Shown here: piece after piece, positions 2,448 to 24,539 of the stretch
How the letters are laid out: each line of letters begins with the position of its first letter
How positions within the stretch are numbered: position 1 is the first letter of the stretch
DNA from: Botryllus schlosseri
Taxonomy: Eukaryota
Reading direction: 5' to 3'
DNA: 64,000 nucleotides
NCBI GenBank assembly: GCA_051294905.1
Contig: CM119372.1
Coordinates: forward strand, 33,234,001-33,298,000
Program-made: the position numbers and the translations under genes
Notes under the pieces: generated by a model
Seen by the model: the letters and a program-made list of their open reading frames with translations, nothing else
Told to the model about the DNA's origin: nothing
Databases searched by the model: none

Positions 2448-3849
2448 CAGCGGTTCTCAACCGGGGGTCCGCGAGACCTCTAAATGTCAAAATGGTTGAT
2501 ATACTAATTCTTATTTTATTTTTTAATTTGAGAAAAGAATGAGGCAGTTTCTCACCACAACTGCTAAAACCTCATGAATCATATCATCATAATAATCGTC
2601 TGACATGAACTATCGTAGTGTGGAAACTCATTTTCCTTGCCAATTTTCCAATAACCTGCTGATACAAACATATTGCTGTTTAGAGACGTTCAGTTTGGGT
2701 TTGTGGGAAAAATAAAAATATGGAGATATTTACGTGAATCAGGGTGACTTCGTAATTTCTGCGAAACCTTCTGAATTTGAAGTTGTCAGTCTCATCAAAT
2801 TAGTGAACAGTCGTTTAAAATAAATATTTTCGATTTTTTTAAAAATTTGTCCCAATGCAGGGATTGAAACCTCGCCACGAAATCCATTGTATCCTGTGAT
2901 ATACATAACCACTATTTGAACAGCTTCTTGGAGGTACATTACTTTAATATACAATTGCATAGTATATTCATATTGAAATGAACCCGAATATTTTTGGCTG
3001 ACACTCGTGATAAATCGGACAATGATATACCTGCTCTTAAAGTTCGGCTATCAGATTCGGTGCATTCTTACTGCGGATGCCCTATTGACAAGGCTGGTTT
3101 TTTGATGAACAAGGAGTGTTTCGTTGCTATCAAAGCATTACGCTCCAATCCTGAAATTCATATCACCAGTTTTATTGGTATGCAGCCTTGTCTTGTTAAT
3201 GTTCAATTGTTCATGGTCGAAAATGTTTGATCGTAAATATACATGTAAAACGAACAGAACAAGTTATTTCTCAGGTTGGAAAACTTGGATCCATTGTTTG
3301 GCGCACAACATTTGTCTATACGTTTAGATTAGGATTTCACTTTGGCGGTAGAAACTCTCTGCGGGCCGTATGTTGCCCGTCCCTGCGCTAAATGCTGGAC
3401 GTGATATATTCATTAAATATATGTTTCTTCATTTTGGTGTCATAAATGTTGCGATCACACCATAAGTATCGTCAGAAGCGTTGTGCGTTAATATTCCATT
3501 AGCCTCCATCTATCTTTGTGGAAATGATTTTCGGCACTCCTCGTTTATGTCATAACGAAGACGCGGATTTACAAGACACGGCCACCGGGCCACGTACTTC
3601 AAGAAATACAGCAGCAAAATTAGCTTTGGAATAATAAAAATCTACCAACTTCCACATAAATAGTATGATGTTATTTTCAATAAAAATCATTATTTCGCTG
3701 TTTATCATAAGCCTACAGTTCATATTTGCACAAGATGGATGAAGGTTGCACCATGATAGATCTAAAATTGAACTAAAACTTGAGGGGGTCCGCGAGCGCC
3801 CGTGACGGTCAAAAGGGGTCCGCGAAGCCAAAAAGGTTGAGAACCACTG
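2448..3849 (-). mobile_element. Non-autonomous hAT (Charlie/Buster-like) element; paralog of 16493-24058
   Basis: TIR CAG(C/T)GGTTCTCAACC; perfect 8-bp TSD CATTAGGG (2440-2447, 3850-3857); reverse complement aligns with 16493-17654 and 23122-24058. Confidence 0.9.
2994..3167 (+). mobile_element. Short Penelope-like element (PLE) RT N-terminal fragment
   Basis: LKVRLSDSVHSY...KECFVAIKALRSNPEIHIT resembles the segment just before the PDKG motif of Penelope/Neptune RTs; truncated before that motif. Confidence 0.5.
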
Positions 3850-8722: not shown

Positions 8723-9441
8723 CAGGGCCGGCCAACCCGTGGCCCGCGGGCCACATGTGGCCCGCGAGAAGGTTTTGAGTGGCCCGCGAGGTAATTTCCG
8801 AAATTTCTAATATCATCAAAAATGGATTGCACAGATTTTGAGCTTGCAAGGACAACCAAAAATTTGATTAGTCCGGCCGCAATACTTGAGATGTGATGAC
8901 TACAATATCAGTTCCGACGCATTGACAGATCCATCAGCCATTCACATATTGATACATCTTCGTACACTACAATAAAGCAGAATAATTTGCGATAGATTTA
9001 TCAAAGGTAAAAATTTTCTACAAGCTTGGCGCAATATGTTGACTCTCGATTTCTTGTTTTTAATATTGTTGCCCTTTTGTGAAAATGGAAGAACACCTAA
9101 TGTATCAGATTGAGTCTAACTATATTCGCGATTACGAGACAAAGTGTCGTTCAACATTTGCGACCTTGCGTTTGCACTCGCAGTAAGACCGTCCACCGTG
9201 AAACCTAGGCACGAAATAATTGACGCATGTTGGTCACAGCTTTCGATAGCGATATGTCCATGCGCCGAATAGCCCAGTCCTTGCAAACTTAGCGATATAC
9301 AGCAGGCCCGCAATATAGTCAAGTGACAATATTATTGACCTAAGAACTTCAAAATTTTTTCGCGCTTCGCGCGGATAGTGGCCCGCGCAAAAGTTCATCA
9401 ATCGAATATGGCCCTTTGACCGAAAAGGTTGGCCAGCCCTG
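8723..9441. mobile_element. hAT-type MITE (GGCCCGCG subterminal family)
   Basis: TIR CAGGGC(C/T)GGCCAACC; perfect 8-bp TSD TATTAGAA (8715-8722, 9442-9449). Confidence 0.9.
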
Positions 9442-9709
9442 TATTAGAACGTCACTTTGTCTTGCTAATGTTCATGTTCGAAAATGTTTGCGCCTAAATG
9501 CCAGTAGACGGCGACGCGGGCCTCATCATCACGTAAGACCGAAAACTGTCGGCGGGCCGTATGTTGCCCGCCCCTGGGCTTGCTGATCATAAAATTTGAT
9601 AAAACGGGTATCAATCAAAAGCTACCGTTGTACTGATTACAAAGATATGAATTTTATTCTGCTCGTGGTCCTGGACCCCCCAAATCAGTCTCGAATGTTG
9701 CATTGTAAC

Positions 9710-12426
9710 TTATTATTATATTCTTTATTCACAGTAAAACTGGTAGATACACACATAATCCGGGGAGCAACCTGCCCCCAAAGGAAAATGGCGAGATTGG
9801 AGTAAATTTTTAAAATTTCAGTAATACATTCAAATTGTTATTCCTATGCAATACACGGAGAAGTCAGATTACAGAATTGCAGCAGATGAAGAATTGGCAA
9901 GGGTTACAGAGCAGAGGTAGAGATGATTGAAGATGAAGAATCGAAATTACAGAAATTATGCTGTGATTCACAAGCGTAATTTTAGTCCAGTGGTGCATTC
10001 AAGGCCTTCCGAAGAATGTGCACAGTGCCCAATAATGTGATCTTTTGGATCATGTCGAATCGAACGTTACCCGGAATTTGTTGGATATGTCTCATGAGTT
10101 TTTTGCTCACGACCCCTGTAGCACCAATGACTATCGGTACAATGTTTATTTTGCATCGCCACATTTTCTCACATTCCATTTTGAGGTCTGCGTATTTGGA
10201 GTATTTTTCTGATTCTTTTTGCAGTAGGTTGTGATCAGCTGGGACAGCCAGTTCAATGAATAAGCATTCTCTTTTCTTTTTTAGTTTGACGATTATATCC
10301 GGGCGGTTGCTCCTGATTTCGCGGTCAGTTATAACTGGTACATCCCACAGAATTTTTACTTGTTCGTTTTCTGTCACTGGTGCTGGGCTGTAATCGTACC
10401 AATTTTTTGTCGAAGTGGTGATGTTAAAATGTTTGCATAATTCAAGATGAATGTAGTGACCAATCCTATTGTGTCTCCATGTGTATTCGGTAGCTGCAAG
10501 TGCACCACAGCCGGACATGAGATGTGCTACAGTTTCATTTTGGTTGTGGCACATTCTGCATTTGCCGTCCGTGTTTTGCTTCAGAATTCTTTTGCGATAG
10601 TATTTTGTAGGAAGCGATTGGTCTTGTGCTGCGAAAATGAATCCTTCGCTTGCCGGTTTCAGGCCAGAGCTGGATAGCCAGGTCCATGAAAGCTCGTCTA
10701 CATGGGGCTGTGAAGTTAACTTCTTGTGCTGTCCATGAAGAGGCATCGACTCCCATATCGTTTCTCTCATTTTCAGCGTTGCATTTTTGTATCGGACTCG
10801 TGCTGCTTTTGCTATTGTTGTGGGTTTAGCAACAGTGTTTTCTGCAGTGTACAGGTTAGCTGTTTCCAAGTTGACTTCTCTGGCGTACTTGTCGTGACGA
10901 TAGCTCAGAGATTTTGTTTTGCGCTGTTTGTCTTCCTGTGCAATGAGTTTGCAGTAAATGTTATCGCTGTTGTTGATGTACTGTGACAAGCCGATGATTT
11001 CTGTTTTGAAGGTTTGTTCAATTTCTTGTAGTCCTCGACCACCTTTTTTTCTGGGGATGTACAGTCTTTGTGTATCAGATTTTGGGTGATGCATGTGGTG
11101 CATTGTCATCAGTTTTCTCGTCTTTGTGTCCAATTTTTTAATTTCATCTTTACGCCAGTTCACCACACCAAAGCTATATCTCAAGACAGGCACTGCAAGA
11201 CTGTTTATGGCATTGATTTTGTTTTTGGAATTGAGTTCAGTTTTGAGAATTGACTTGAGCCTGCTGATGTATTCTTTTTTTAGACTTGATTTCATTGCAG
11301 CATGTTTAATGTTGTCGCTTTCACAGATCCCTAGATATTTATAGTGATCTTCGGCATTCAATTCTGTTATGGTTTCGTCCATTTTGAAGTTCATGTCGCC
11401 AGTGCTGGTGGCTCTTCCGCGTCGTATGGTAAGTTTTGAGCATTTATCCAAGCCAAATTTCATTTTTATATCTTCCGAAAACTCATGAACAATTTTCATT
11501 TGGTTATTCAGGTCCGTGTCGGATTTCGCATACAGTTTCAGATCATCCATGAACAAAAGGTGATGAATCTTTTGACCTTCAGAATTTGCTGCTTTTTTCA
11601 TCACGTATCCTGTTTCATTTTTTCTCAGCAACTCACTGAGTGGAGCTAAGCTGAGGCAGAATAGAAGTGGTGAGAATGAGTCGCCTTGAAGATACCATTG
11701 CATATCTGAATTGTACAGGTTTCTGTTTCACCTTGGTCATGTTTGATCAACAGTTTTGTATGCCAATTTTTCATTGAATTTTCAATAAATCTGATGATGA
11801 TCGGATTCATTTTGTACATACGCATTGTTTTCAGTATCCACGTGTGAGGGACTGAATCGAAAGCTTTTTTGTAATCTATCCATGCCATGCTGAGGTTAGT
11901 GTGTCTCCTCTTGCAGTTTTCAAGAATGGTTTTGTCAAGGAGCAGGTGGTCCTTACAGCCAAGGGCGCCTTCCTTGCATCCTTTCTGCTCAGGCGGTAGA
12001 AGATTTTCTAGGTGTTTGTAGCTTCGTTTTGCCAGGATTTTGGTCAGTGTTTTGTACATGGTTGTCAGGCATGTTATTGGCCTGTAGTTCTTGGGGTCCC
12101 TGGTGTTTTCGTTTTTTGGAATAAGATAGGTGATCCCTTGTGTGAACCAGGCTGGGATCTCGTGCGAGCTGGTTGAGGATAAAAGCTCATTGTAGGTCAA
12201 CGCTAGGTAATTATGTGTTGCAGTTAGTTTTTTTAGCCAAAAGTTTTTGATCTGGTCAGGACCAGCTGCTTTCCAGTTCAGTGAACTCTTTAGGGCCTCC
12301 TTGATTTCTTGTTTTGTGATTTCTGACCATTGTTGTTCTGGTGTTTGTAGATGGTCAGTGTGGAGGTCTTGTATCCAATTTGCATTTGAGTTGTGCAATT
12401 TTTTGGTTTCCCATATTTTCTTCCAA
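9710..12426 (-). mobile_element. 5'-truncated R4/Dong-clade non-LTR retrotransposon (RT + CCHC + restriction-like endonuclease)
   Basis: RT motifs YRPITCL, WIDYKKAFDSV, QGDSFSP, LFMDDLKL; CRMC-x7-H-x4-C zinc knuckle; RHN; RPDII...IELAVP...K..KY RLE motif; about 270-nt 3' UTR ending AATAAAGAATA(TAA)3. Confidence 0.92.
9982..12426 (-). pseudogene. RT-RLE polyprotein of the R4-like element, one frameshift near 11690
   Basis: ORFs 11646-12551 and 9982-11703 join as NGIF/QGDSFSP if one C is restored (GGTATCTTC^AAGGCGAC). Confidence 0.88.
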
Positions 12427-15400
12427 TTATTATTATGTATAAAAACATTTAGTGGTGCTTTTCGCATCGAAGGCTTTTTGCACCACGGCGATTTAGATAT
12501 TTTGATCAAAATGATAGCATGAAATGTCATGAAAATACAAGATGAGTACATAGCTAAATGCGACGCTTTGACTCTCGTATGAAGTCCAGTAGATCGGCAA
12601 TAATGTTGATGTCCGTTAAAAGGTTATATAGCTGGAACGGTACGTTCTTTGTCTGCGCGATACGTTGTAGTTTTCTTCTTATCTCGGTCAGATGTGAGCA
12701 GGTCATAATATAGTGTTCGACCGTTTCTAATTCACCGCAATGCTCGCACAATGGTGATTCCGAGCAGCCAATGTGGTGGAGATGTGCATTGAGTCCGCAG
12801 TGACCGGTGCGTAGTCGAAACAACGTAGCTTCGCTGCGTCTTGGTGGGACTGATGGTAATTTCACCTCCAGATTTGGTCGGAAGATTTTGTAATGGCTTC
12901 CTGTTTCTGAATCGAGATATTCCCGGTTCCAAATAGCTTTGCATTTATGTAAAGCGATTTTCTTCGCATCGTCTATAGGGATGTCATGAATTGTGATGGC
13001 ACGGTGTGACGACGTCGCCTCCTTGGCCAGACGATCGGCTACTTCATTGCCGGGAATTCCTGCGTGACCCGGAATCCATATGAGCGTGATTAATTTTCCT
13101 TCACTCGTCAACCTGTTGAGAACATTAACGATTTGATTAACGATAAAATGTCCATCTGTTCGATAGTTAGCTATACAGTCTAGTGCACTAAGGCAATCGC
13201 TGAGAACAACAGCTCGGGTAACGTTATTCGTTTCGATCCAATGAAGAGCGGATAATATTGCATATGATTCTACTGAAAATGACGACAGGCCTCCTTGGCA
13301 TTTATGGGATATTGTTACAATAATGATCTTTTACGAATATCGCATAACCAGTGGCATCCGTGGTCTTCGATCCGTCTGTGAAAACATGTAAATGGTTTGG
13401 GTATGAGCCCATTAGTTCAGTATAGGCTACGTCCACAATGTATTGGAATGAGTGACGATTGATAATTCGTGATAATGACAAATCAACCTGTAAATCTGCG
13501 ATTGTCCAAGGCGCTGCTCGAACGAGTTCCTTGCCGCGAATACACTGGTCGTCGAGTGGGTTTGATCTTGTTAGGAAGTTGAACGTACAATATCTGTTTC
13601 TTAATAGGCAGTATGTGTCTTCCCACGTTGTCTGGAGTAATTCAGAGTTTGGGTGGTTCGACTTAGGTAAAGTTTCATATCGGTATTTCAAACAAAGAAA
13701 CTGGTGTCTTATGTGTATTGGCATCTCGTTGCACGACGCTTCTATCGAACATATCGGAGTGCTTTTCATCGCACCACAGCACACCCGTAATGCCTTATTA
13801 GTGATTGCCGCGATTTTCTTGAGGTACGTTACAGGCGCGAAGAAATACGCCTCCATTCCATAATCGATCACGGATTTTACTAGAGTTCTGTACAAAGTTA
13901 GAAGTACATGTTTCGAGGCCCCCCATTTTGTTCCAGACATCAGTTTCAGGAAATTTATCCGTTTTTCGCATTTTTGAGCAATGTAGTCAATATGATACTT
14001 ATAGTTTAGTCTTTTGTCAAATATTATTCCAAGGTATTTGTAAGTATCCGCACAAGTGACCACGTGATCTCTCATACGTAGATTGGGAAGAATTACTTTC
14101 CTTTTCCGGGTGAAAAGCATTGCGACGGTTTTTTGACTGGCGATTTCAAATCCCCAATTCCTACACCATTGGTGTACTGATTCTAGTGATATCTGTATCT
14201 CAGAAGCGATAGCTTCAATGTTTAGGTCACTTTGCCATAATGCAATGTCGTCGGCGTATAATCGGCAGTGTGAAGTCACAGTGGCGGGGAGGTCGTTAAT
14301 CATTACCGCGAAGAGTAGAGGACTGAGGACGCTTCCCTGGGCGATTCCGTTTTCCGTAATAAACGATTCTGATAGTGTAGTACCGAGCCGTACTTGAAAC
14401 GACCTGTCAGTGAGAAACTGGTTCAACCAATTCAAGATCTTACCTCGGACTCCTAATAGAAATAGTTTGTGAATAACTGCTTGTCGCCAAACCGTGTCGT
14501 ATGCTTTCTTAATGTCGATGAACACTGCAATTGTGGAACGTCCGTTGTGAATTGCTTTGTAGACTTCATCATGCAGAGCGATTACATGATCGAGACACCT
14601 CCGACCACGTCGAAATCCACATTGAGAGGTGTGAAGTAAATCGTTGGTTTCCAAAAACCAAGATAGACGATGAGCGATCATAGATTCCATGACTTTACTG
14701 AAATGGCTCGTTAGCGCGATTGGGCGGTATGAATTTGTAAGGGATGGGTCTTTATTTCCCTTCAATATAGGAACTACTGTGGATTGTTTCCAAGTCCGAG
14801 GAACTTGTCCAGAGTTCCAAGACTGGTTTATAATGTCTAACATGCTTGTCAAGCCAGAGGTTGGCAAGTGCTTAAACATAGTATAGTTGATCATATCATT
14901 GCCAGGAGAAGAGCTTTTTTTGGATTTGATGGCTTTAGTTAACTCATTTATCGTGAAGGGACAGTCAAATTGGTGGTTGCTATCGTCATTGATTAAATGT
15001 CCAATGGTTAGCTGTTGTCTCCGAAGTCTGAGTTCCTCTGAAAGTTGAGAGTTACTACTAACGCTTTCGAAAGCTTGGGCTATTGCATCTGCCTTTTCCT
15101 TCTCTGACTTTACAGTAGCCTACTTGTACCCACCTGTAGATCAGGGATTGCACCAGTTGTTCGTTTTCCGGATATGGATCGTGCAATATTCCAGACCTGC
15201 CGGAGGTTCGCCTTATCGCCGAGTGATTCACAGAACGCTTTCCATGATGACTTTTTTGCTTCCAATATTGTTCTCCGACAGAGTGAGCGAAGACGTTTGA
15301 ACTCAATAATATGTTTGATGCCGAAAGTACGTTTCATCTTGAGGAAAGCGGCTTTCTTCCTTCTGACGGCCCGATCGCATTCTTCATTCCACCAGGGAAC

Positions 15401-15790
15401 TGGGTTCTTTTTATGATTACGTTTCATTGGTATAGATATACTAGCCGCCTGGAATATTTTCTGTGTGAAGTTATCACATGCCTCATTAATGTTCGCCGAA
15501 TTATATTGTATCGGGTAGGACATTTCAGCGTTTTGCGTGAATGTCTCCCAATCTGCTTTGTTCATATTCCATCTAGGTGGACGTTGTACAGAATTAACGA
15601 TCCGCATCGCATAGGATATGTGAATAACGGCGTGGTCACTGTCGATCAGGTCGTTCGTAACGCTGACAGTGCACCTGTTTGCGATATCAGTCGAAGCAAT
15701 CGAGAGATCAATCAGTGACCATCTTCGTATTGCGTTTGTTGCGATGTTAATGTGGGTGGGGTTTGTTACGTTCAAGGCAATTAAAGGGTT
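12427..15790 (-). mobile_element. 5'-truncated I-group (I/Nimb-like) LINE: APE C-terminus, RT, RNase H, CCHC, 3' UTR stem-loop, (TAA)3 tail
   Basis: IDLSIAS...SDH (APE end), YRPIALTS, QGSVLSP, YADD, FTDGSK...E...SD...WIPGHAGIPGNEVAD (RNase H), CEHC...H...C; stop at 12554. Confidence 0.92.
12554..15790 (-). pseudogene. ORF2 (APE-RT-RNaseH) of I-group LINE, frameshifts near 15120 and 13325
   Basis: ORFs 15110-15958, 13302-14894 and 12554-13111 are colinear; the intervening frames stay open (ATVKSEKEKADAIA...SPGNDMI; VTISHKC...SVESYAI...SDCLSAL). Confidence 0.88.
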
Positions 15791-16586
15791 ATTGTAACGT
15801 AGTTTGGTATTGTGACGCAACAAGGCCGTCTGGGAGCAGGTGAGAAGCAGCGCAAACCGCAAACGTATTAGCCATTCTTGCACAACCGATTGAGCATTGC
15901 CCCTCTCACTCTCTTGCGCATTTGCTCCTGAGCTGCTCATACGGCATCGTTGCGTCACAATACCAAATTTTGTTACAATTCAACATTCGAGGCTGATTTT
16001 TTTGTGGCGGGGGGGGGGGGGGGGGACCACGAGCGCAGAATAAAATCTATGTTTTCGTAATTAGTACAACGGTAGCTTTCGGTTGATAGCTTGATACCCG
16101 TTTTATCAAATTTAATGCTCGGCAAGCCGGTCAAAAATCACCGTCAAATTGCCTTTGACCAAATGGAAAGTGTGACGTAAACCAATTGCACTGAGCCGTG
16201 AGATTTGCTTGTGTCCACATCATAAAAGACGATGTTCGGACAATACTGAGAATGTACATTACCCAGAATGGACAATATCGAGAATGGACATTAGCGAGAA
16301 TGGACAATCCCGAGAATGGACATTACCGAGAATGGAGACCACCGAGAATGGACATTACTGAGAACGCAATATATGCAATGCAGGCATGTTATGCATATGA
16401 ACAGGTCGTGTGTGTGCATCACGGCGTTACCACATTCAGTATCGATTCTCAGGTATAACTTTCTCGACAACGTCCGTTATATTAAGCTAGATCAGTGGTT
16501 CTCAACCTTTTTGCCTTCGCGGACTCCTTTTGGACGGTGACGGACCCCGCGGACCCCCTCAAGTTTTAGTCTAATTTACCTCAATT

Positions 16587-17597
16587 CAGTGTTGGGATGA
16601 CTCGAGTCATGACTTGACTCGAGTCAGACTCGAGTCAACTTTTTCGTATGACTTGACTTGACTCGAGTCACTTTGCAAAAATGACTTGACTTGACTTGAC
16701 TCTACACTTCAAAAATGTGGATTGACTCGTGACTCGGAGCAAAATTTTCGAGTCAATTTCAAGTCATCAATAAGCAAACTGTGTCGACTAAATCCTTGTA
16801 TCATGTCTACGTTCAGATTATTCGCGATACGGCGCTGACACTTGTGAGAGCAACTAGGCCATGGAAAACTGAACTAGGCATTCACTTATTGTAGGCCTAC
16901 ATTTCACTGGTCCTCCATCGTTACATCACAAATAAATTGACCGCAAACGAAATGATCACGGCTTACGTTGTCGTAGTAGTAGTAGAGTAATAGAAACGTA
17001 TCTCTGTTTCTTAGTCGACTCAACGCTTACATTGGGCAGTGCTCACCTTTACCAAACCTCCTCTATGATTTAAATCGAATGAATATAGTTTATGCGCTTA
17101 TACTCTCACGGAGTTGCGTAGATGGGTACCATATCAATTTGTTCAAACTTCTCGAAGCTTCGTATTCGATACTCTATTTTGGCTGATAATAACAGACTGT
17201 AGCATGTAACTATAGTTAATCACGTATTTTATTAGCAGTTTTACGAGTGCGTGTGCGATACATCGCCTTTTTGCTTGTATATTTAACTTTATATTCGTTA
17301 TTTGATTCAAGCTAAATGGCCAATTAATCTGTCTTTCACGCAGCTGGCAAAATGTCAGGACTTTGAATCACGACTCATACGTCGAAAATTCAATTTGACT
17401 TGAATTGTGACTTGACTCGTAACTTGACTTGACTTGACTCGACTTGACTCGAGTCACCTCCAAAAATCGAGTGACTTGACTTGACTCGAGTCACCTTCGA
17501 AAATCGATTGACTTGACTTGACTTGACTCGAGTCAAAATCTGCAATGACTCGAGATGACTCGTGACTCGAAGATATAGTGACTTGATCCCAACACTG
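16587..17597. mobile_element. hAT-type MITE, GACTTGACTCGAGTC family
   Basis: TIR CAGTGTTGGGAT; perfect TSD CCTCAATT (16579-16586, 17598-17605). Confidence 0.92.
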
Positions 17598-17654
17598 CCT
17601 CAATTATCGTGCAACCGTCGTCTGTGTTATGCAAATATCAACTCAAGGCTATAG

Positions 17655-18927
17655 CAGAGTTGGGATCAAGCCACTACCTTCGAGTCACGAGTCATTTCGA
17701 GTCATTGCACATTTGGACTCGAGTCAAGTCAAGTCAATCGATTTTCGAAGGTGACTCGAGTCAAGTCAAGTCACTCGATTTCTGGAGGTGACTCGAGTCA
17801 AGTCGAGTCAAGTCAAGTCAAGTCAAGTCACGAGTCAAGTAACAATTCAAGTCAAGTTGCCTTTTCGAAGTATGAGGCGTGATTGCGTGATTGCATTTTG
17901 CTAGCTGCCTGAAATACCGATTGAGTCGAAATACAAGCAATTACTACTAAATAAATACAGTCCATCCTCAAGATTACCGGACCACGACTGACCTATCGAT
18001 CTCGCTTCCCCTGACATGCCGCCCTATTTCTTGTCGCTTCCTTTTTCTATACTATCTTCTTTACTTTCATTCAGTGTGCATGCCTCCTCTTTACATCGCC
18101 TAGGCCAAGGTGGGTGTCCGATTCCATAGACAACTCCTAGTCGCTTCGACATCTTCCTTTCTTTTCATTGTATCGCATTTTTTGTGGTGTATTGAACTGA
18201 TAAAATTGCTAATAAACCAATGATGATGATGATGACTAGTCATTGATTTTGAACCGATGAACGGATATAGAGTTTAATATGCATACCAGAAGGTGCTGTA
18301 TCGCTCACATATAGCCTACATAGAACTGCTAAAATACGTAAGTAAATGCATAGCCTCAGGTTATAGTTACCAGCCAAAATAGAGAATAGAGGAACGAATT
18401 GATAAGATGCAATACATTACGCATTTACAAATTGATATGATACAATTCGAGCCTGTGCCAATGGTTGAGGACTATATATAAATTATATTAGAATTCAATT
18501 TCAATAAAACAAGAGGTTTGGTTAAGGTAAGAACAGATAACAAAAATAGACATTTTGCTATTAAATTCCTTTACTATACTAATTTACGACAACGTAAGCT
18601 GTACGCTTCGACCACTTCGTTCGCGGTCGATTTATTTGTAATAGGACAATGGAGGCTCAGTAAAACGAACGATCATTTAATGATTGGTCGCTCTCACGGG
18701 TTGCAGCAGCGTTTCGCGAACAATCCGAACATATGCAAGATACAGTGATTTTTATTGACACTGATTAGATGATTACTTGGTGACTTGAAATTGACTCGTG
18801 AATTTTGCTCCGAGTCACGAGTCAATCCACATTTCTGATACGCCGAGTCAAGTCAAGTCATTTTAGCAAAGTGACTTGAGTCAAGTCAAGTCATACGAAA
18901 AAGGTGACTCGAGTCATCCCAACACTG
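17655..18927. mobile_element. hAT-type MITE, same family, inverted relative to 16587-17597
   Basis: TIR CAG(A/T)GTTGGGAT; perfect TSD GGCTATAG (17647-17654, 18928-18935). Confidence 0.92.
17923..18236 (+). mobile_element. 3' end of CR1/L2-group LINE
   Basis: SKYKQLLLNKY ORF2 C-terminus, pyrimidine-rich UTR, AATAAA, (TGA)n tail; homologous to 26980-27243 and 59590-59950. Confidence 0.7.
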
Positions 18928-18947
18928 GGCTATAGTGATAAAGAACA

Positions 18948-19314
18948 TTATTATTATTATATTCTTTATTCATAGTAAGAAACTGGTCAATACACACATA
19001 ATCCGGGGAGCAACCTGCACCCAAAGGAAAATGGCGAGATTGGAGTAAATTTTTTAAAATTTCAGTAATGCAGTCAAATTGTTATTCCTATGCAATACAT
19101 CGAGTCTAAGTCAGATTACAGAATTGCAGTAGATGAAGAATTGGCAAGGGTTACAGAGCAGAGGTAGAGATGATTGAAAATGAAGAATCGAAATTACAGA
19201 AATGATGCTGTGATTTACTAGTATAATTTTAGTCCAGTGGTGCATTCAACGCCTTCCGAAGAATATGCACAGTGCCCAATAACGTGATCTTTTGGATCAT
19301 GTCGAATCGAACGT
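18948..19314 (-). mobile_element. Extreme 3' fragment of the same R4/Dong-like element (last ~30 codons + 3' UTR + (TAA)4)
   Basis: Near-identical by eye to 9710-10067. Confidence 0.93.
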
Positions 19315-20099
19315 AAACGTAAACGATGAAAAGATAGTGACGCTTTTCACATTCAAGCCTTTTGCGTCACACCATAGCATGCATATGAGAAATGCACAAA
19401 GTTATCATGCAAGAAATATTAGAATGATGGAAAAATAAATCGTCGACAGAGGCATACACAAGCATATATGAGTGATCAGTAGGCACACAACAAATTCGGA
19501 AACATAACCGCTACGAATTCAGAGATATAAACATTTAAATACCGCGCCTTGTTTCCTTGACATATTGAATGACATGGTCCAACATGCATTCACTAGTTAA
19601 TAGGTCTACTGTATTAAAAAGACTGTCATTATTTAATAGCGTTTCAGATTTGCACGTTGCCGTACATACTTCAAACATTTCATTAGATAATGATCGACGG
19701 TTTCGGGCAACGAACATTGTTTACATAGAGGAGAATCATTGTATCCAATCTTATGCAGGTGGTAGTTGAGCCGACAATGGCCTGATCTCAACCGAAACAG
19801 AATGATTTGCTCTTTTCTCGATGCTAAACTTGGTAATCTCTTGTAAATCGTGTCTTTGATGAGCTTGTACTGACTTCCGGTGTCGCTTGTCCTGTACAGT
19901 TGATCCCAGTTGTTTCTGCACGAATTCCTAAGGAGCGAGTACGCATCTCCTGCGGAGACGAAGTCCATTTGATGACGGGGCGGTGTTTCTGATTCTGTAG
20001 CGCTTCTTGCAAATTGGTCGGCGATTTCATTGTGTTGAATACCACAGTGTGCTGGAATCCACACAAGTGATATTGTGACCTCGCGTTGTTTCAATGGGG

Positions 20100-22566
20100 C
20101 TGTTCCACTTCATTTTGAACACGCGGTGGTGACAAAGGTAACTCGACCCAAATCTGTTTTGTTGCTATATACTAGGCTTACCATACGTCCTCTTTTAAGA
20201 GGATTTGTCCTCTTTTTTGACTTTTTTGAAAGTGTCCTCGGAGGACGCCCTTTTGTCCTCTTTTTTGAGATTTTGTCCTCTTTTTTCGGATTTAGAGCAG
20301 ATTTAGAGAAAATTGCGAGTGATATGCCACATATTAGCACAGACGTGAAGCTCCGACGGGTGAAAAACGGTGATTTTAGCTCTGAGCGAAAAGAAGATCT
20401 TTTTTTTTTTGTTTTTTTTTTTGTTTTTTTAGTCATCCACCTGGCGATGTGGAGTAAAAAACGTTATTTTGAGATCTGAGCGAAAAGATGACCTTTTTTT
20501 TTTTTTTTAGTTAACCAGTCACAAAGTGGGAAAAATTCACCGGTTTTTGAGAATTCTACTCCGATTTTGGAAGTTGCAAATTTATGAAAAAGTGTCCTCT
20601 TTTTAGATTTCCAAAATATGGTAAGCCTACTATATACTTTACTATGGGACTGGACTAAACATGGACCTAATTTCGTCTCTGGACGTAGAACGAGGATGGT
20701 GAAAGTATCCATATCAACTTAAATCAACCATATGGATATCAAAGAGCTGTTAGCCGACGAAAATGATGGTATTTCTTGGGGTCTTGTCCTCGTGATGGAA
20801 GTGCTGAAATTATGATTCAATCCTTATCACCAACTACGATGGTTCTATCATTATTATTTTCGACATTTAGCGACCAAAACTACACCAGATTGGACTGGAT
20901 TCAACACAAACCCTTTCTAGATATATTATGACCTTAACCAAATAGCTGTCTGGTTGAAAGACTTCATGTCATTCCAATATCTTCCTATTCTGTAATCTCA
21001 TCACTATCTGTTGGTGTTCTTAAATGATAAAATACCACTAATACCGACTAGATCTCATCCTCTCTGATAATTGACAATTATAAACGATGTACCAGTTGTG
21101 TTGTTGCAGTTATTTTGTTGAATAAAATAGAACAGATATCAACTGAAGTCGCAAAGCATATATAGTCTATAAAGCAGAGGTTCTCGAATATTTTTTTGCC
21201 CGACCCGAAAATAAATTGTATGGTAAGCACATGAACATTGGATTATAATATTCTAAGCAGCGTATTTATGCATACTCATTATTACACAATTACATAATTC
21301 TTAAGAAGAAGGAATGTCAACCCGCTATTTGAGAAACCCATGTATGGGACTGCTTTAAGACAAAAAGCAAAATACTATGGTGTAAGCCAAATTTATGCAA
21401 ATAGCACCACCATATCCAAGAATTGTAAAACACAAGAATGAGCTGGTGAGCCTTATGGTCATTTTTGATCATTCAGATTTTACTTGGAAATCTTTAAGGT
21501 TGTAGCAAAGTTAGTTGTGCTACTAACATAATATGTATCAGATAATAACAGTCCATGTAGTGAGAAACCGACAATAGTTCTGTTTTGTTGGAGTCAATTG
21601 AGATACCGTAGTTGTCTTACAACTGAGCCTAATTCCAAAGTCTTTCAGTTGGAAGTACAAAAATGACGCCATGCTTTCAATATCCAACAGTGATAAGTGT
21701 TCAGGATTTATAATTGGAATGATGGTTACCTTTCACTATCAACTATAGAGTATGCTTCTTTCAATAATGGGTGAATCACTATATATTCAGCTATCCCATT
21801 TTCCAAATTGTTGAATTGTCAGAACAAGATGCCGTGACTGATGACTCGTACGGTCTATTCTTTTGCAACAGCTTTTGACACTGACGTCTCTTCTGCAACC
21901 TCTTTCATTGAAAACAGAACAGATGACGCTGCCATTGCTGAAGTTTCATCAGCTTCATTGTAATCCAAACGCATGATTTTTCATGTTGTAGGACCTCACA
22001 GCAGCAAATGTACGATGTACATAACATAATTTTCCATAACACACAGCACTCATAGGGGAACTGATTTATTGCAGGGGAAGCAGGATGAATCATGTTGGTG
22101 AAATGATATTATGCAGACAACTTTTCCAGGAGAGGACCAGGCATCCATACCTCCTCTTCGTAAACGGAACCCATCCTCCCAATAATTTTCTGTTTCTAAT
22201 TGATGCATCTTCTGAGATCAAATGACCGTCATCCTTACACAATAAGGCATATAACACTCGCCATATCATACGACTCTCGGGAAATTAACAGTGAATGTAC
22301 CGGTAAGCTGCCATCTGCCAGGGTGCCAATGTCCATCACGAGGACAAGACGCCGAAAAATAGCGTCATTTTCGTCAGCTAACAGCTCTTTGATATCCATA
22401 TGGATGATTTATATTGATATGGATACTTTCACCATCCTCGTTGTACGCCAAGAGACGAAATTCGGTCCTTGTTGAGTCCATTCCCATAGTAAAGCATATA
22501 ACAACAAAACAGATTTGGGTCGAGTTACCTTTGTCGCCACCACGTGTTCAAAATGAAGTGGAACAG
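20100..22566 (-). mobile_element. Decayed DNA transposon with ~235-bp TIRs inserted in the RNase H domain of LINE 2
   Basis: Left TIR 20100-20799 (minus the nested MITE) is the reverse complement of 22332-22566 (CTGTTCCACTTCATTTTGAACACG...); LINE reading frame resumes on both sides; no clear TSD. Confidence 0.85.
20173..20629. mobile_element. hAT-type MITE, TAGG(C/G)TTACCATA / GTCCTC family
   Basis: TIR TAGGCTTACCATA; perfect TSD CTATATAC (20165-20172, 20630-20637); relatives at about 35320-35623, 39402-39814, 41941-42194. Confidence 0.92.
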
Positions 22567-24539
22567 TGTATCTTCTCGACTATCTCGGTGATAAGGAGAG
22601 GAGCTGCGAAATTGAAATTTGCTATACATGTTAATGCGCTCAAGCAATCACTGAGTATTGCCACTCTACTGTGGGTATTATTCAGCACCCAAGATAGGGA
22701 ATCTGAAATAGCGATTAGTTCGGCCGGAGAATACTGAAAAATAGGGCGGCAATGAATTTGCAGACGTAGTAATATTTGGAATATGATAAGAGTATCCACA
22801 CCCTGTCGCAGTCTTGGATCCATCTGTGAAAATCTGAGTGTAGCCTTGATATGTAGAGAATATATGATCGAATGATACTGATTTTCTGACATCGGGGGGA
22901 TGTATCTTGCGTATTGAGTGGCACAAAGAAAGGTCCACATTTGATGTTAAAATTGTCCATGGAAGAGTCGTCGAGATTTCGCTTCCACAAATCCGTAGGT
23001 GGTCGATATCAGCAAACCTAGACAGGATATTAACGGTGACGAACCGTCTATTTAGCAGACTGTATGTTTCTTCCCAAGAGCTTTCGAGTATATCATTGGC
23101 CAGATTGTCCTGTAAAGAACAGCAAAATGACCGTGCATGAAAATAACATCATACTATATATGTATAAATATGGGTAGATTTTTATTATTTCGAAGGGACT
23201 TCTGCAGCTGAATTTCTTATTTCTTGAAATAGCCTATGTGGTCGTGTCTTGAAAATTGACGCCTTCGATTTGATATGAACGAGTAGCCTACCGATAATCC
23301 ATTTCCACAAAGGTAGGTTGCTGTTATGTTCGTGCATTTTACGTTGGTATCGTTTGTTTCTTATCTGTCTAGGATTAGTAATTACCGCCAATCATTATTT
23401 CCTCGTGTGTCGTTCTTCGTATTTATACCCTGTGTTCTGTTGTCTCGTGGTCTTTCATTTAACTGCACTCTGGATCGTGTCACTGCCGTAAAGTTATACT
23501 GCTGATAATATACTGATTTCTTATTGCAACCTCGTCGCATTGAGTTATTGTTCAAACAAGATCAAGAGCATAACAGTTGCAGTAAATGTAATATTACCGC
23601 GTGACGACGACCGACGAGACCTTTGAGCAAGATCACAACATATATGGCACCAAAATGGAGAAACAGATTTTTCAATGAAGTAATAACGTCCAGTCTAGTC
23701 ATTTCTATGTATAGCAGCTCATCTTCAAGATATTCTGGAATAGTAGTTATATCACAAGAGAAAATGGTTGCTAAGGTTTTAATCCTTTTTTCGAGACAGA
23801 CTGGAAAAAGCAATATGTTTGTATCAGTAGGCTATTGGCAATTTGGCAATTAAAATGAGTTTACGAAGTAGGGTATTTAATCTCATATACGACCATTCTG
23901 ATGATTTACTCATTGAAGCATTAGCAGTTTTGAAGCGAAACTGCTTCGTGATTTTCCTAATTTAAAAAGTTACAAATTCGTTATCAGTCATTTTGCAAAT
24001 TTAGAGGTTTCGCGGACCCCCTGAAAATGCTTAACTAGCCCCCGGCTGAGAACCACTGAGCTAGATTCTTGGCATTGGCCGTTCTCGGTAATGTCCATTC
24101 TCGGTAATGTTCATTCTCGGTGCAGCAATTAACGGTTCATTGTATCTGGTGATCTGTATAAAAGTATAGCTAACCAATCGCATTGGTGCTCGGCTATACA
24201 ATACTTATCTGGAGATAGCCTGTTGCTGTTGGTGAGGTTCTTCGTAACAGATATATATATTCTCAATACAATGGTTTATTCAGAACGTTGCCGTAGTTTG
24301 CGTATAGAGTCTCATAATCAAAGTAATCTCTAACACGTGTTACATACACTTTTATACGAGTCCATAGCTCAGTGGTCTCGAGTCATCACAAGAAGTAGTT
24401 TCTTATGCGAGACTATAGAGTATGTCATACTCTATAGGGAGACACAACAGAATATCATGGACGTATGAACACAGCGGAATAGCTGAGTCTCATCTTGAAA
24501 GTGACTTAAGTAAGACTAATTAAGGAAAAGCCATTAGAT

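Follow-up and report, generated by a model that had tools for sequence, protein, structure and literature searches.

Background

The Drosophila I factor and other I-group long interspersed nuclear elements (LINEs) end in a TAA-repeat tail, reverse transcriptases (RTs) of the R2 type are able to jump between templates, and the U6/L1 chimeric retrocopies of mammals form by template switch. All three bear on a 64,000-nucleotide stretch of the Botryllus schlosseri genome (GenBank assembly GCA_051294905.1, contig CM119372.1, positions 33,234,001 to 33,298,000; hereafter the window), in which two composites each consist of part of what appears to be an I-group LINE followed by part of a Dong-like retrotransposon, here called R4, the pair being enclosed by a single target-site duplication (TSD). 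The closest described relatives of R4 are Dong (Bombyx mori), DongAg (Anopheles gambiae) and DongBg (Biomphalaria glabrata), for which a review gives TAA microsatellites as the target (PMC3812793). A second paper places Dong in the R4 lineage, has a 5' junction construct that follows TAA repeats, and describes a ribozyme like that of hepatitis delta virus (HDV) at the Dong 5' end (PMC3774820).

The original prediction took the two composites for chimeric retro-insertions, each made in one event. This view is not supported: R4 copies lie in TAA tracts, the tails of both LINE families are TAA repeats, and the LINE part can be shown to be the older in some of the composites. We conclude that each composite in all likelihood records two separate retrotranspositions, that of a TAA-tailed I-group LINE and then that of a TAA-specific Dong-like element. 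The apparent fusions would thus be nested insertions of an ordinary and already known type, here in a new host, and we are confident that the known target preference suffices to account for them. The main value of the analysis is as a correction, in that a seemingly recurrent chimera between a LINE with an apurinic/apyrimidinic endonuclease (APE) and an element with a restriction-like endonuclease (RLE) is explained by that preference. It also carries a caution: where the downstream element has the tail of the upstream one as its target, a single duplication around both does not prove that they arrived in one event.

Two composites and their empty target sites

Read directly on the minus strand, composite 1 consists of a 5'-truncated, RNase H-bearing LINE (LINE1), a 5'-truncated RLE element (R4#1) and TAA repeats; the RLE element ends ...AATAAAGAATATAATAATAA, and the second copy of GTTACAAT follows. 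Composite 2 has the same minus-strand layout, with LINE2 and R4#2, between two 9-bp copies of TGTTCTTTA. The order LINE-R4-(TAA)n, each time inside one TSD, is therefore as had been predicted (coordinates in Table 1). The window copies of LINE1 and LINE2 are both 5'-truncated and broken, and their C-terminal parts share 42% identity over 145 aa; the R4 breakpoints differ as well, with 2717 bp of R4 retained in composite 1 and 367 bp in composite 2. Two LINE families and two events must therefore be involved, and on both points the original prediction was correct.

Sequences without the insertions are present in the window for both targets. Composite 1 sits in an inverted repeat, and the other arm of this host contains the octamer GTTACAAT once, uninterrupted and without TAA, and a paralogous host sequence for composite 2 is likewise uninterrupted and free of TAA at the insertion point; reading of the sequence confirmed what had been claimed for both. 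As the empty sites have no TAA, the R4 nuclease would not have opened them, and since R4 is found elsewhere in TAA tracts this argues against a composite having arisen in one R4-driven event. The same empty sites bear on whether repeats were wrongly joined during assembly. Every part of the composites is a repeat, and the contigs gave no verdict on the junctions, which leaves room for such an error; against it, exact 8- and 9-bp duplications stand at the exact outer ends and match the empty paralogues, and the same architecture recurs on other contigs, at 9 further loci. We regard an artefact as extremely improbable.

R4 copies lie in TAA repeats

The genomic context of R4 was read from a sample of 30 R4-anchored loci, of which 28 are independent once the window locus is set aside and two overlapping loci are counted as one. 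The 5' end of the R4 array is visible in 16 of the 28, and we refer to these as resolved. TAA-type repeats stand immediately upstream in 11 of the 16 resolved arrays; the 5' junctions of the remaining five (L021, L023, L025, L027 and L029) are without TAA and adjoin unrelated DNA or a tiny R4 fragment. R4 3' ends mostly run into further TAA units, and among the examined loci no R4 copy has a target-site duplication of its own. To judge from these contexts, R4 inserts specifically into (TAA)n. It resembles Dong in this respect, with copies that lie in (TAA)n and have TAA-repeat ends, and with full-length copies that begin at the same defined base directly after (TAA)n. The TAA-less form seen in 5 of the 16 arrays implies that a junction such as that of composite 2 is ordinary for the R4 family, and for annotation it is useful that the 5' joins of this family appear often to delete upstream target DNA.

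Nine of the 28 loci are head-to-tail arrays of 5'-truncated R4 copies, each sitting in the tail of the preceding copy. The array at L014/L015 has five copies of mixed subfamilies, with 94.8-100% identity to R4#1, and the mixture indicates that they arrived at different times. By inserting in earlier R4 TAA tails, R4 behaves like other repeat-specific LINEs that target themselves: according to a published account, target-specific RLE elements make tandem or nested arrays by re-targeting their own tails (PMC4640811), and R4 shows no notable difference from them. Families of shared sequence also occur downstream of the TAA tract that follows R4, in L003/L019/L022/L025/L028, in L020/L024 and in L007/L026. 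These shared 3' flanks suggest that other repeats that begin or end in TAA/TTA repeats serve as landing sites too.

LINE tails as landing sites

To each LINE family belongs a sample of 30 3' ends from the same genome, with the window's own copies counted. In the LINE1 family all 30 loci have the end TTTTTATACA(TAA)n, and R4 is absent from 24 of them. In the LINE2 family, 23 of the 30 3' ends read ...CATCGTTTTTACCAA(TAA)n (TTTTTACCAA(TAA)n) and then pass into unrelated DNA without R4, two loci have neither tail nor R4, and five, the window copy included, continue into R4. Both families are TAA-tailed, and the two LINEs do not have the different tails ascribed to them. They are alike with the I factor and other I-group LINEs in their (TAA)n ends as well as in RT, RNase H and a C-terminal zinc-binding motif, while being distinct families at the mutual C-terminal identity given above.

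In composite 1 the LINE1 tail is intact as ...TTTTTATACA(TAA)3, and this tail is very probably where R4#1 landed. The LINE2 copy of composite 2 ends ...CATCGTTT, so that the last ~10 nt of the family (TTTACCAA) and the (TAA)n tail are missing; a filler, ACGTTT, follows, and R4#2 begins at ACGTTCGATTC. Complete 3' untranslated regions (UTRs) with repeat tails had been expected for both composites. This holds for composite 1, where the upstream partner is complete with its tail, and fails for composite 2. What looks like a (GTTTAC)n tail in composite 2 is, on our reading of the sequence, a junction product with CGTT microhomology. Within the whole window, the sole tract of (TAA)>=4 is the tail of R4#2.

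R4 stands directly behind six of the 30 LINE1-family tails and five of the 30 LINE2-family tails, or 11 of 60 loci. These 11 LINE-R4 junctions have 11 different R4 breakpoints, and the hits are recurrent and independent; two of the R4 copies are full-length, directly behind LINE2 tails at L051 and L053. The latter arrangement makes co-transcripts conceivable, and one could imagine that a LINE transcript entered the downstream R4 and that the chimeric RNA was retrotransposed through the R4 3' end, spreading copies of LINE and R4 together. A composite that spread in this way would leave shared junctions, however, and the 11 different breakpoints show that no composite has propagated. Moreover, the R4 machinery would place such a copy in a TAA tract and not at the TAA-free sites found here. 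Spread by read-through is accordingly very hard to credit.

A further claim was that an APE-type and an RLE-type LINE are repeatedly coupled at this locus. I-LINE tails mark the start of 5 of the 16 resolved R4 arrays; those at L008, L014/L015 and L030 were recognised by tblastn, and those at L013 and L005+L091 by hairpin and tail. As for what is available to R4, (TAA)6 has 1478 overlapping matches genome-wide, and among the first 10 distinct tracts of (TAA)>=6 on contig C1 four are I-LINE tails with the same 3' hairpin, two belong to another repeat and four are other sequence. R4 thus occurs at LINE tails (5/16) about as often as expected from the LINE-tail share of TAA tracts (4/10, from a sample of 10 tracts), with no excess coupling, and it abuts I-LINE tails essentially no more often than by chance. 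On this count a special coupling of the two LINE types is unsupported, and the figure also speaks against the joining of both elements in a single event. R4 is at I-LINE tails because Dong-type elements insert in (TAA)n, and for annotation the gain is that many R4 landing sites (4/10 sampled) prove to be I-group LINE tails. Our literature search returned no published statement of Dong in the tails of other LINEs; it missed key older papers, and we claim no absence. Among the three mechanisms first proposed, the genome-wide evidence favours R4 targeting of I-LINE tails, whereas template switching is unsupported and read-through is contradicted by the 11 different breakpoints.

Relative ages and the one-event alternative

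If a composite were made in one event, its two parts should be of equal age. As a measure we used private substitutions, meaning positions at which a copy alone differs from the base common to at least 80% of at least five other copies. By this measure the LINE is the older of the two parts in composite 1 (6/1755 private substitutions in the LINE, 0/1772 in R4; Fisher p = 0.015), in L072 (24/1742 and 1/776; p = 0.0018) and in L081 (9/519 and 1/1343; p = 7e-5), that is, in three of the eight composites tested. L088 has 32/1022 in the LINE and 10/689 in R4 (p = 0.037), and L060 has no LINE sites with enough cover for a count. Three other observations bear on age. First, outside itself the LINE1 RT region is matched at 97-98% at best, and many copies share 99.2-99.9% identity with R4#1 over 1.77 kb, so the assembly lacks a LINE1 source copy of comparable youth. 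Second, a frameshifting lesion near 13320 is private to LINE1 and missing from 10/10 relatives that span the region. Third, LINE2 in composite 2 has taken up a nested insertion of 2.47 kb.

Alternatively, target-primed reverse transcription could have started on R4 RNA, with the RT then switching to an I-LINE RNA, to give one insertion with one duplication. The template jumping of R2-type RTs provides a precedent, and a single duplication encloses the pair in composite 1, in composite 2 and in L081, where it is 10 bp long and extra nucleotides are present at the LINE 5' join. This scheme applies mainly to the old composite 2, where the junction has CGTT microhomology and no TAA and where the two parts have equal densities of private substitutions. 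However, insertion into a LINE tail yields the same structure, as the TSD of the LINE then encloses R4 as well and R4 itself lacks one; the single duplication of L081 fits one event and two events alike, and no duplication could be clearly made out at L088, L089 and L072, which are older composites. The greater age of the LINE in composite 1, L072 and L081 and the 97-98% best match of LINE1 are also at odds with joint synthesis. Finally, an end-to-end jump should retain the full 3' end of the acceptor, and the last ~10 nt and the tail of LINE2 are gone. We consider a single event improbable.

The comparison with U6/L1 chimeras is instructive here. As in those retrocopies, copies of two unrelated RNAs stand head to tail in one duplication, and the upstream partner extends to its own 3' end or close to it. 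The composites differ in that the downstream partner is site-specific and its target is the tail of the upstream partner, in that the ages of the parts differ in the three composites named, and in that the 3' end of the would-be acceptor in composite 2 is incomplete.

Some of our own results weigh against sequential insertion. No age difference is seen in L062 (LINE 7/1753, R4 0/466; p = 0.36), L089 (7/539 and 7/587; p = 1.0), L043 (8/775 and 19/1239; p = 0.43) or composite 2 (LINE2 10/775, R4#2 6/367; p = 0.60). The LINE counts are in addition upper bounds, as fewer close relatives were sampled for the LINEs than for R4 and unsampled subfamily variants can therefore look private. The 5' junction of composite 2 is without TAA, and its microhomology would fit an internal template switch as well. 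The order of events is inferred, no LINE-only allele having been seen at either locus; none of the contig joints listed, with 224 more unlisted, passed over just R4 or an entire composite, in a comparison (X1, X2, X3 and X15 on 9000-23500) that was swamped by repeats and uninformative. The small number of TAA tracts behind the expected share of LINE tails belongs among these points too.

Proposed sequence of events

Sequential insertion can be set out in three steps. In the first, an I-group LINE with APE, RT and RNase H would enter an ordinary site by target-primed reverse transcription, creating an 8- or 9-bp TSD and leaving its normal (TAA)n tail beside the downstream copy. In the second, a Dong/R4-like element with a restriction-like endonuclease that recognises (TAA)n would later cut this tail; its RNA would be reverse-transcribed from priming on the TAA repeats, and the cDNA would remain 5'-truncated, at the two lengths observed. 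Cleavage of TAA repeats by the RLE and priming on the repeats are predictions. In the third, the R4 cDNA would be joined to the upstream DNA by microhomology. This join would fall inside the TAA tail in composite 1; in composite 2 it would remove the remaining TAA units together with ~10 nt of the LINE 3' end, a putative deletion at the 5' join.

A more far-reaching scheme would have the Dong-like element live largely off the TAA tails provided by I-group LINEs and by its own copies, as a dependent 'tail parasite' of another LINE lineage. Full-length copies behind LINE tails, such as those in L051 and L053, might then be expressed by read-through from the promoter of the LINE, with a self-cleaving RNA at the 5' end setting them free as shown for Dong, and the minority of TAA-less composites (composite 2, L060) might be one-step template-switch chimeras. 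We offer this as a speculation and think it unlikely.

The R4 family

Full-length R4 is ~4.05 kb long, with one open reading frame (ORF) that starts ~70 nt downstream of the 5' end; this end is seen in L021. A search of the 495-Mb genome with the 3' UTR (272 bp) gave no fewer than 1243 candidate matches; 41 of these are listed, the window itself among them, and 40 of the 41 round to 100% identity. By these matches R4 is a young, high-copy and very active family, and it is very young and large compared with the Dong elements. Its length, ends and TAA specificity are themselves a gain for the annotation of B. schlosseri. R4#1 comprises RT, CCHC motif, putative PD-(D/E)xK nuclease, 3' UTR and TAA-repeat end, and its ORF is broken by a private 1-bp deletion near 11687, as judged against L012 and contigs of 4 runs. 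R4#2 belongs to an older subfamily: it is 93.4% identical to R4#1 and 97.8-98% identical to its subfamily mates in L014/L015, L017 and L043. In L005 the R4 copy is truncated at R4 position 859 and lies behind another LINE tail.

An R4 ORF of 581 aa has the Pfam domains RVT_1 (the C-terminal half of RT) and zf-RVT, and CCHC and RPD...E..(K) motifs were read by eye. We read the RPD...E...K pattern in the C-terminus as a restriction-like nuclease, for which cleavage activity is predicted. No APE or other Pfam domain is above threshold in the N-terminal 475 aa of full-length R4. In having a single ORF with RT, CCHC and restriction-like nuclease and no APE, R4 is like Dong, DongAg and DongBg.

The relatives of R4 among solved structures are R2 proteins only, with a weak match (E = 1e-9). 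A protein search gave 702 homologues, and none of the 120 listed bears a clade name; the matches listed include homologues of 40-50% identity from beetle, coral, killifish, shrimp, psyllids and sea anemone. Domain order and target fit Dong, and the R4-clade label given on these grounds is provisional. It bears on this label that some HERO families also target microsatellites (PMC4640811). An Rfam scan of the 5' end of full-length R4 (L021 1650-2200, E <= 1) found no ribozyme family, including none of the HDV-like self-cleaving kind shown for Dong (PMC3774820) and for R4 proper, though such ribozymes are easily missed.

Two R4 copies are split by short insertions, in L004 at R4 positions 1588-1600 and in L019 at R4 positions 2095-2104. 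The insertions are flanked by R4 duplications of 13 bp and 10 bp; one has a tRNA-like end, and the other resembles a miniature inverted-repeat transposable element (MITE).

Sequence from this part of the window also turns up outside the assembly. Contigs of seawater, marine and one hot-spring metagenomes contain 0.26-0.34 of the sampled words of 8800-16800, which is about the share of the R4 part, and two other organisms (B and C) contain 0.47 and 0.35. These matches probably represent host environmental DNA or related species with the same young R4 family.

The LINE families

LINE1 has the Pfam domains RVT_1 (E = 4.5e-40), RNase_H (E = 1.1e-8) and zf-RVT, with a weak APE remnant (Exo_endo_phos_2, E = 0.0076, below the cut-off) in keeping with a 5'-truncated copy. 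LINE2 has RNase_H and zf-RVT. Their domain content, RT with downstream RNase H, suggests that both are I-group LINEs.

A hairpin lying 15-30 nt before the TAA tail is common to the I-group LINE families, with a 7-bp stem and an A-rich loop of ~20 nt. In the window it occurs on the minus strand at 12452-12486 in LINE1 (GTGGTGC...GCACCAC) and at 19343-19377 in LINE2 (GTGACGC...GCGTCAC), and elsewhere in L013, L015, L030, L091, L092, L095, L099 and L100. Between families the stem varies by compensatory pairs (GTGGTGC/GCACCAC, GTGACGC/GCGTCAC and GTGGCGC/GCGCCAC). The stems are present in minimum-free-energy folds; for the UTRs taken whole, the z-scores fall short of significance. This hairpin is probably a recognition element for the RT.

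Three copies of LINE2 (L047, L049 and L052, contig C1, 41.60-41.62 Mb) have identical flanks and lie ~9.5 kb apart, which indicates one LINE2 insertion inside a tandem segmental repeat.

Features of the locus

Table 1. Features of the two composites and their paralogous host sites, in window coordinates
Feature	Position	Strand	Remarks
Composite 1, whole	9702-15798	-	
Composite 1 TSD, downstream copy	9702-9709	-	GTTACAAT, 8 bp; read directly, identical to 15791-15798
R4#1, Dong/R4-like RLE retrotransposon, 5'-truncated, 2717 bp	9710-12426	-	RVT_1, zf-RVT
LINE1, putative I-group LINE, 5'-truncated	12427-15790	-	end of APE, RT, RNase H, zf-RVT
Composite 1 TSD, upstream copy	15791-15798	-	read directly
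Other arm of host inverted repeat, empty version of the composite 1 target	15951-15990	.	one ATTGTAAC, no TAA repeat
Composite 2, whole	18939-23121	-	
Composite 2 TSD, downstream copy	18939-18947	-	TGTTCTTTA
R4#2, 367-bp 3' end of older R4 subfamily	18948-19314	-	ends (TAA)4; read directly
Junction filler ACGTTT, 6 nt, between LINE2 and R4#2	19315-19320	-	local duplication with CGTT microhomology
LINE2, 3' part	19321-20095	-	end of RNase H, zf-RVT, 3' UTR; Pfam, sequence reading
Nested 2.47-kb element in LINE2, ~40-bp terminal inverted repeats (TIRs)	20096-22565	.	contig joint 20095->22566; TIRs read
LINE2, 5' part (5'-truncated)	22566-23112	-	sequence reading, contig joint
Composite 2 TSD, upstream copy	23113-23121	-	read directly
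Paralogous uninterrupted host sequence for composite 2	3690-3715	.	no TAA repeat at insertion point

The nested TIR element in LINE2, on which the original prediction was silent, is bridged by contigs from three runs (X2, X3 and X15) that connect its two flanks directly. Part of this element (~20132-20615) has very high contig depth, which indicates that a high-copy repeat is included. The host of composite 1 (15800-16050, 9600-9709) is a foldback or MITE-like inverted repeat with a poly-C/poly-G run, and LINE1 lies in one of its arms.

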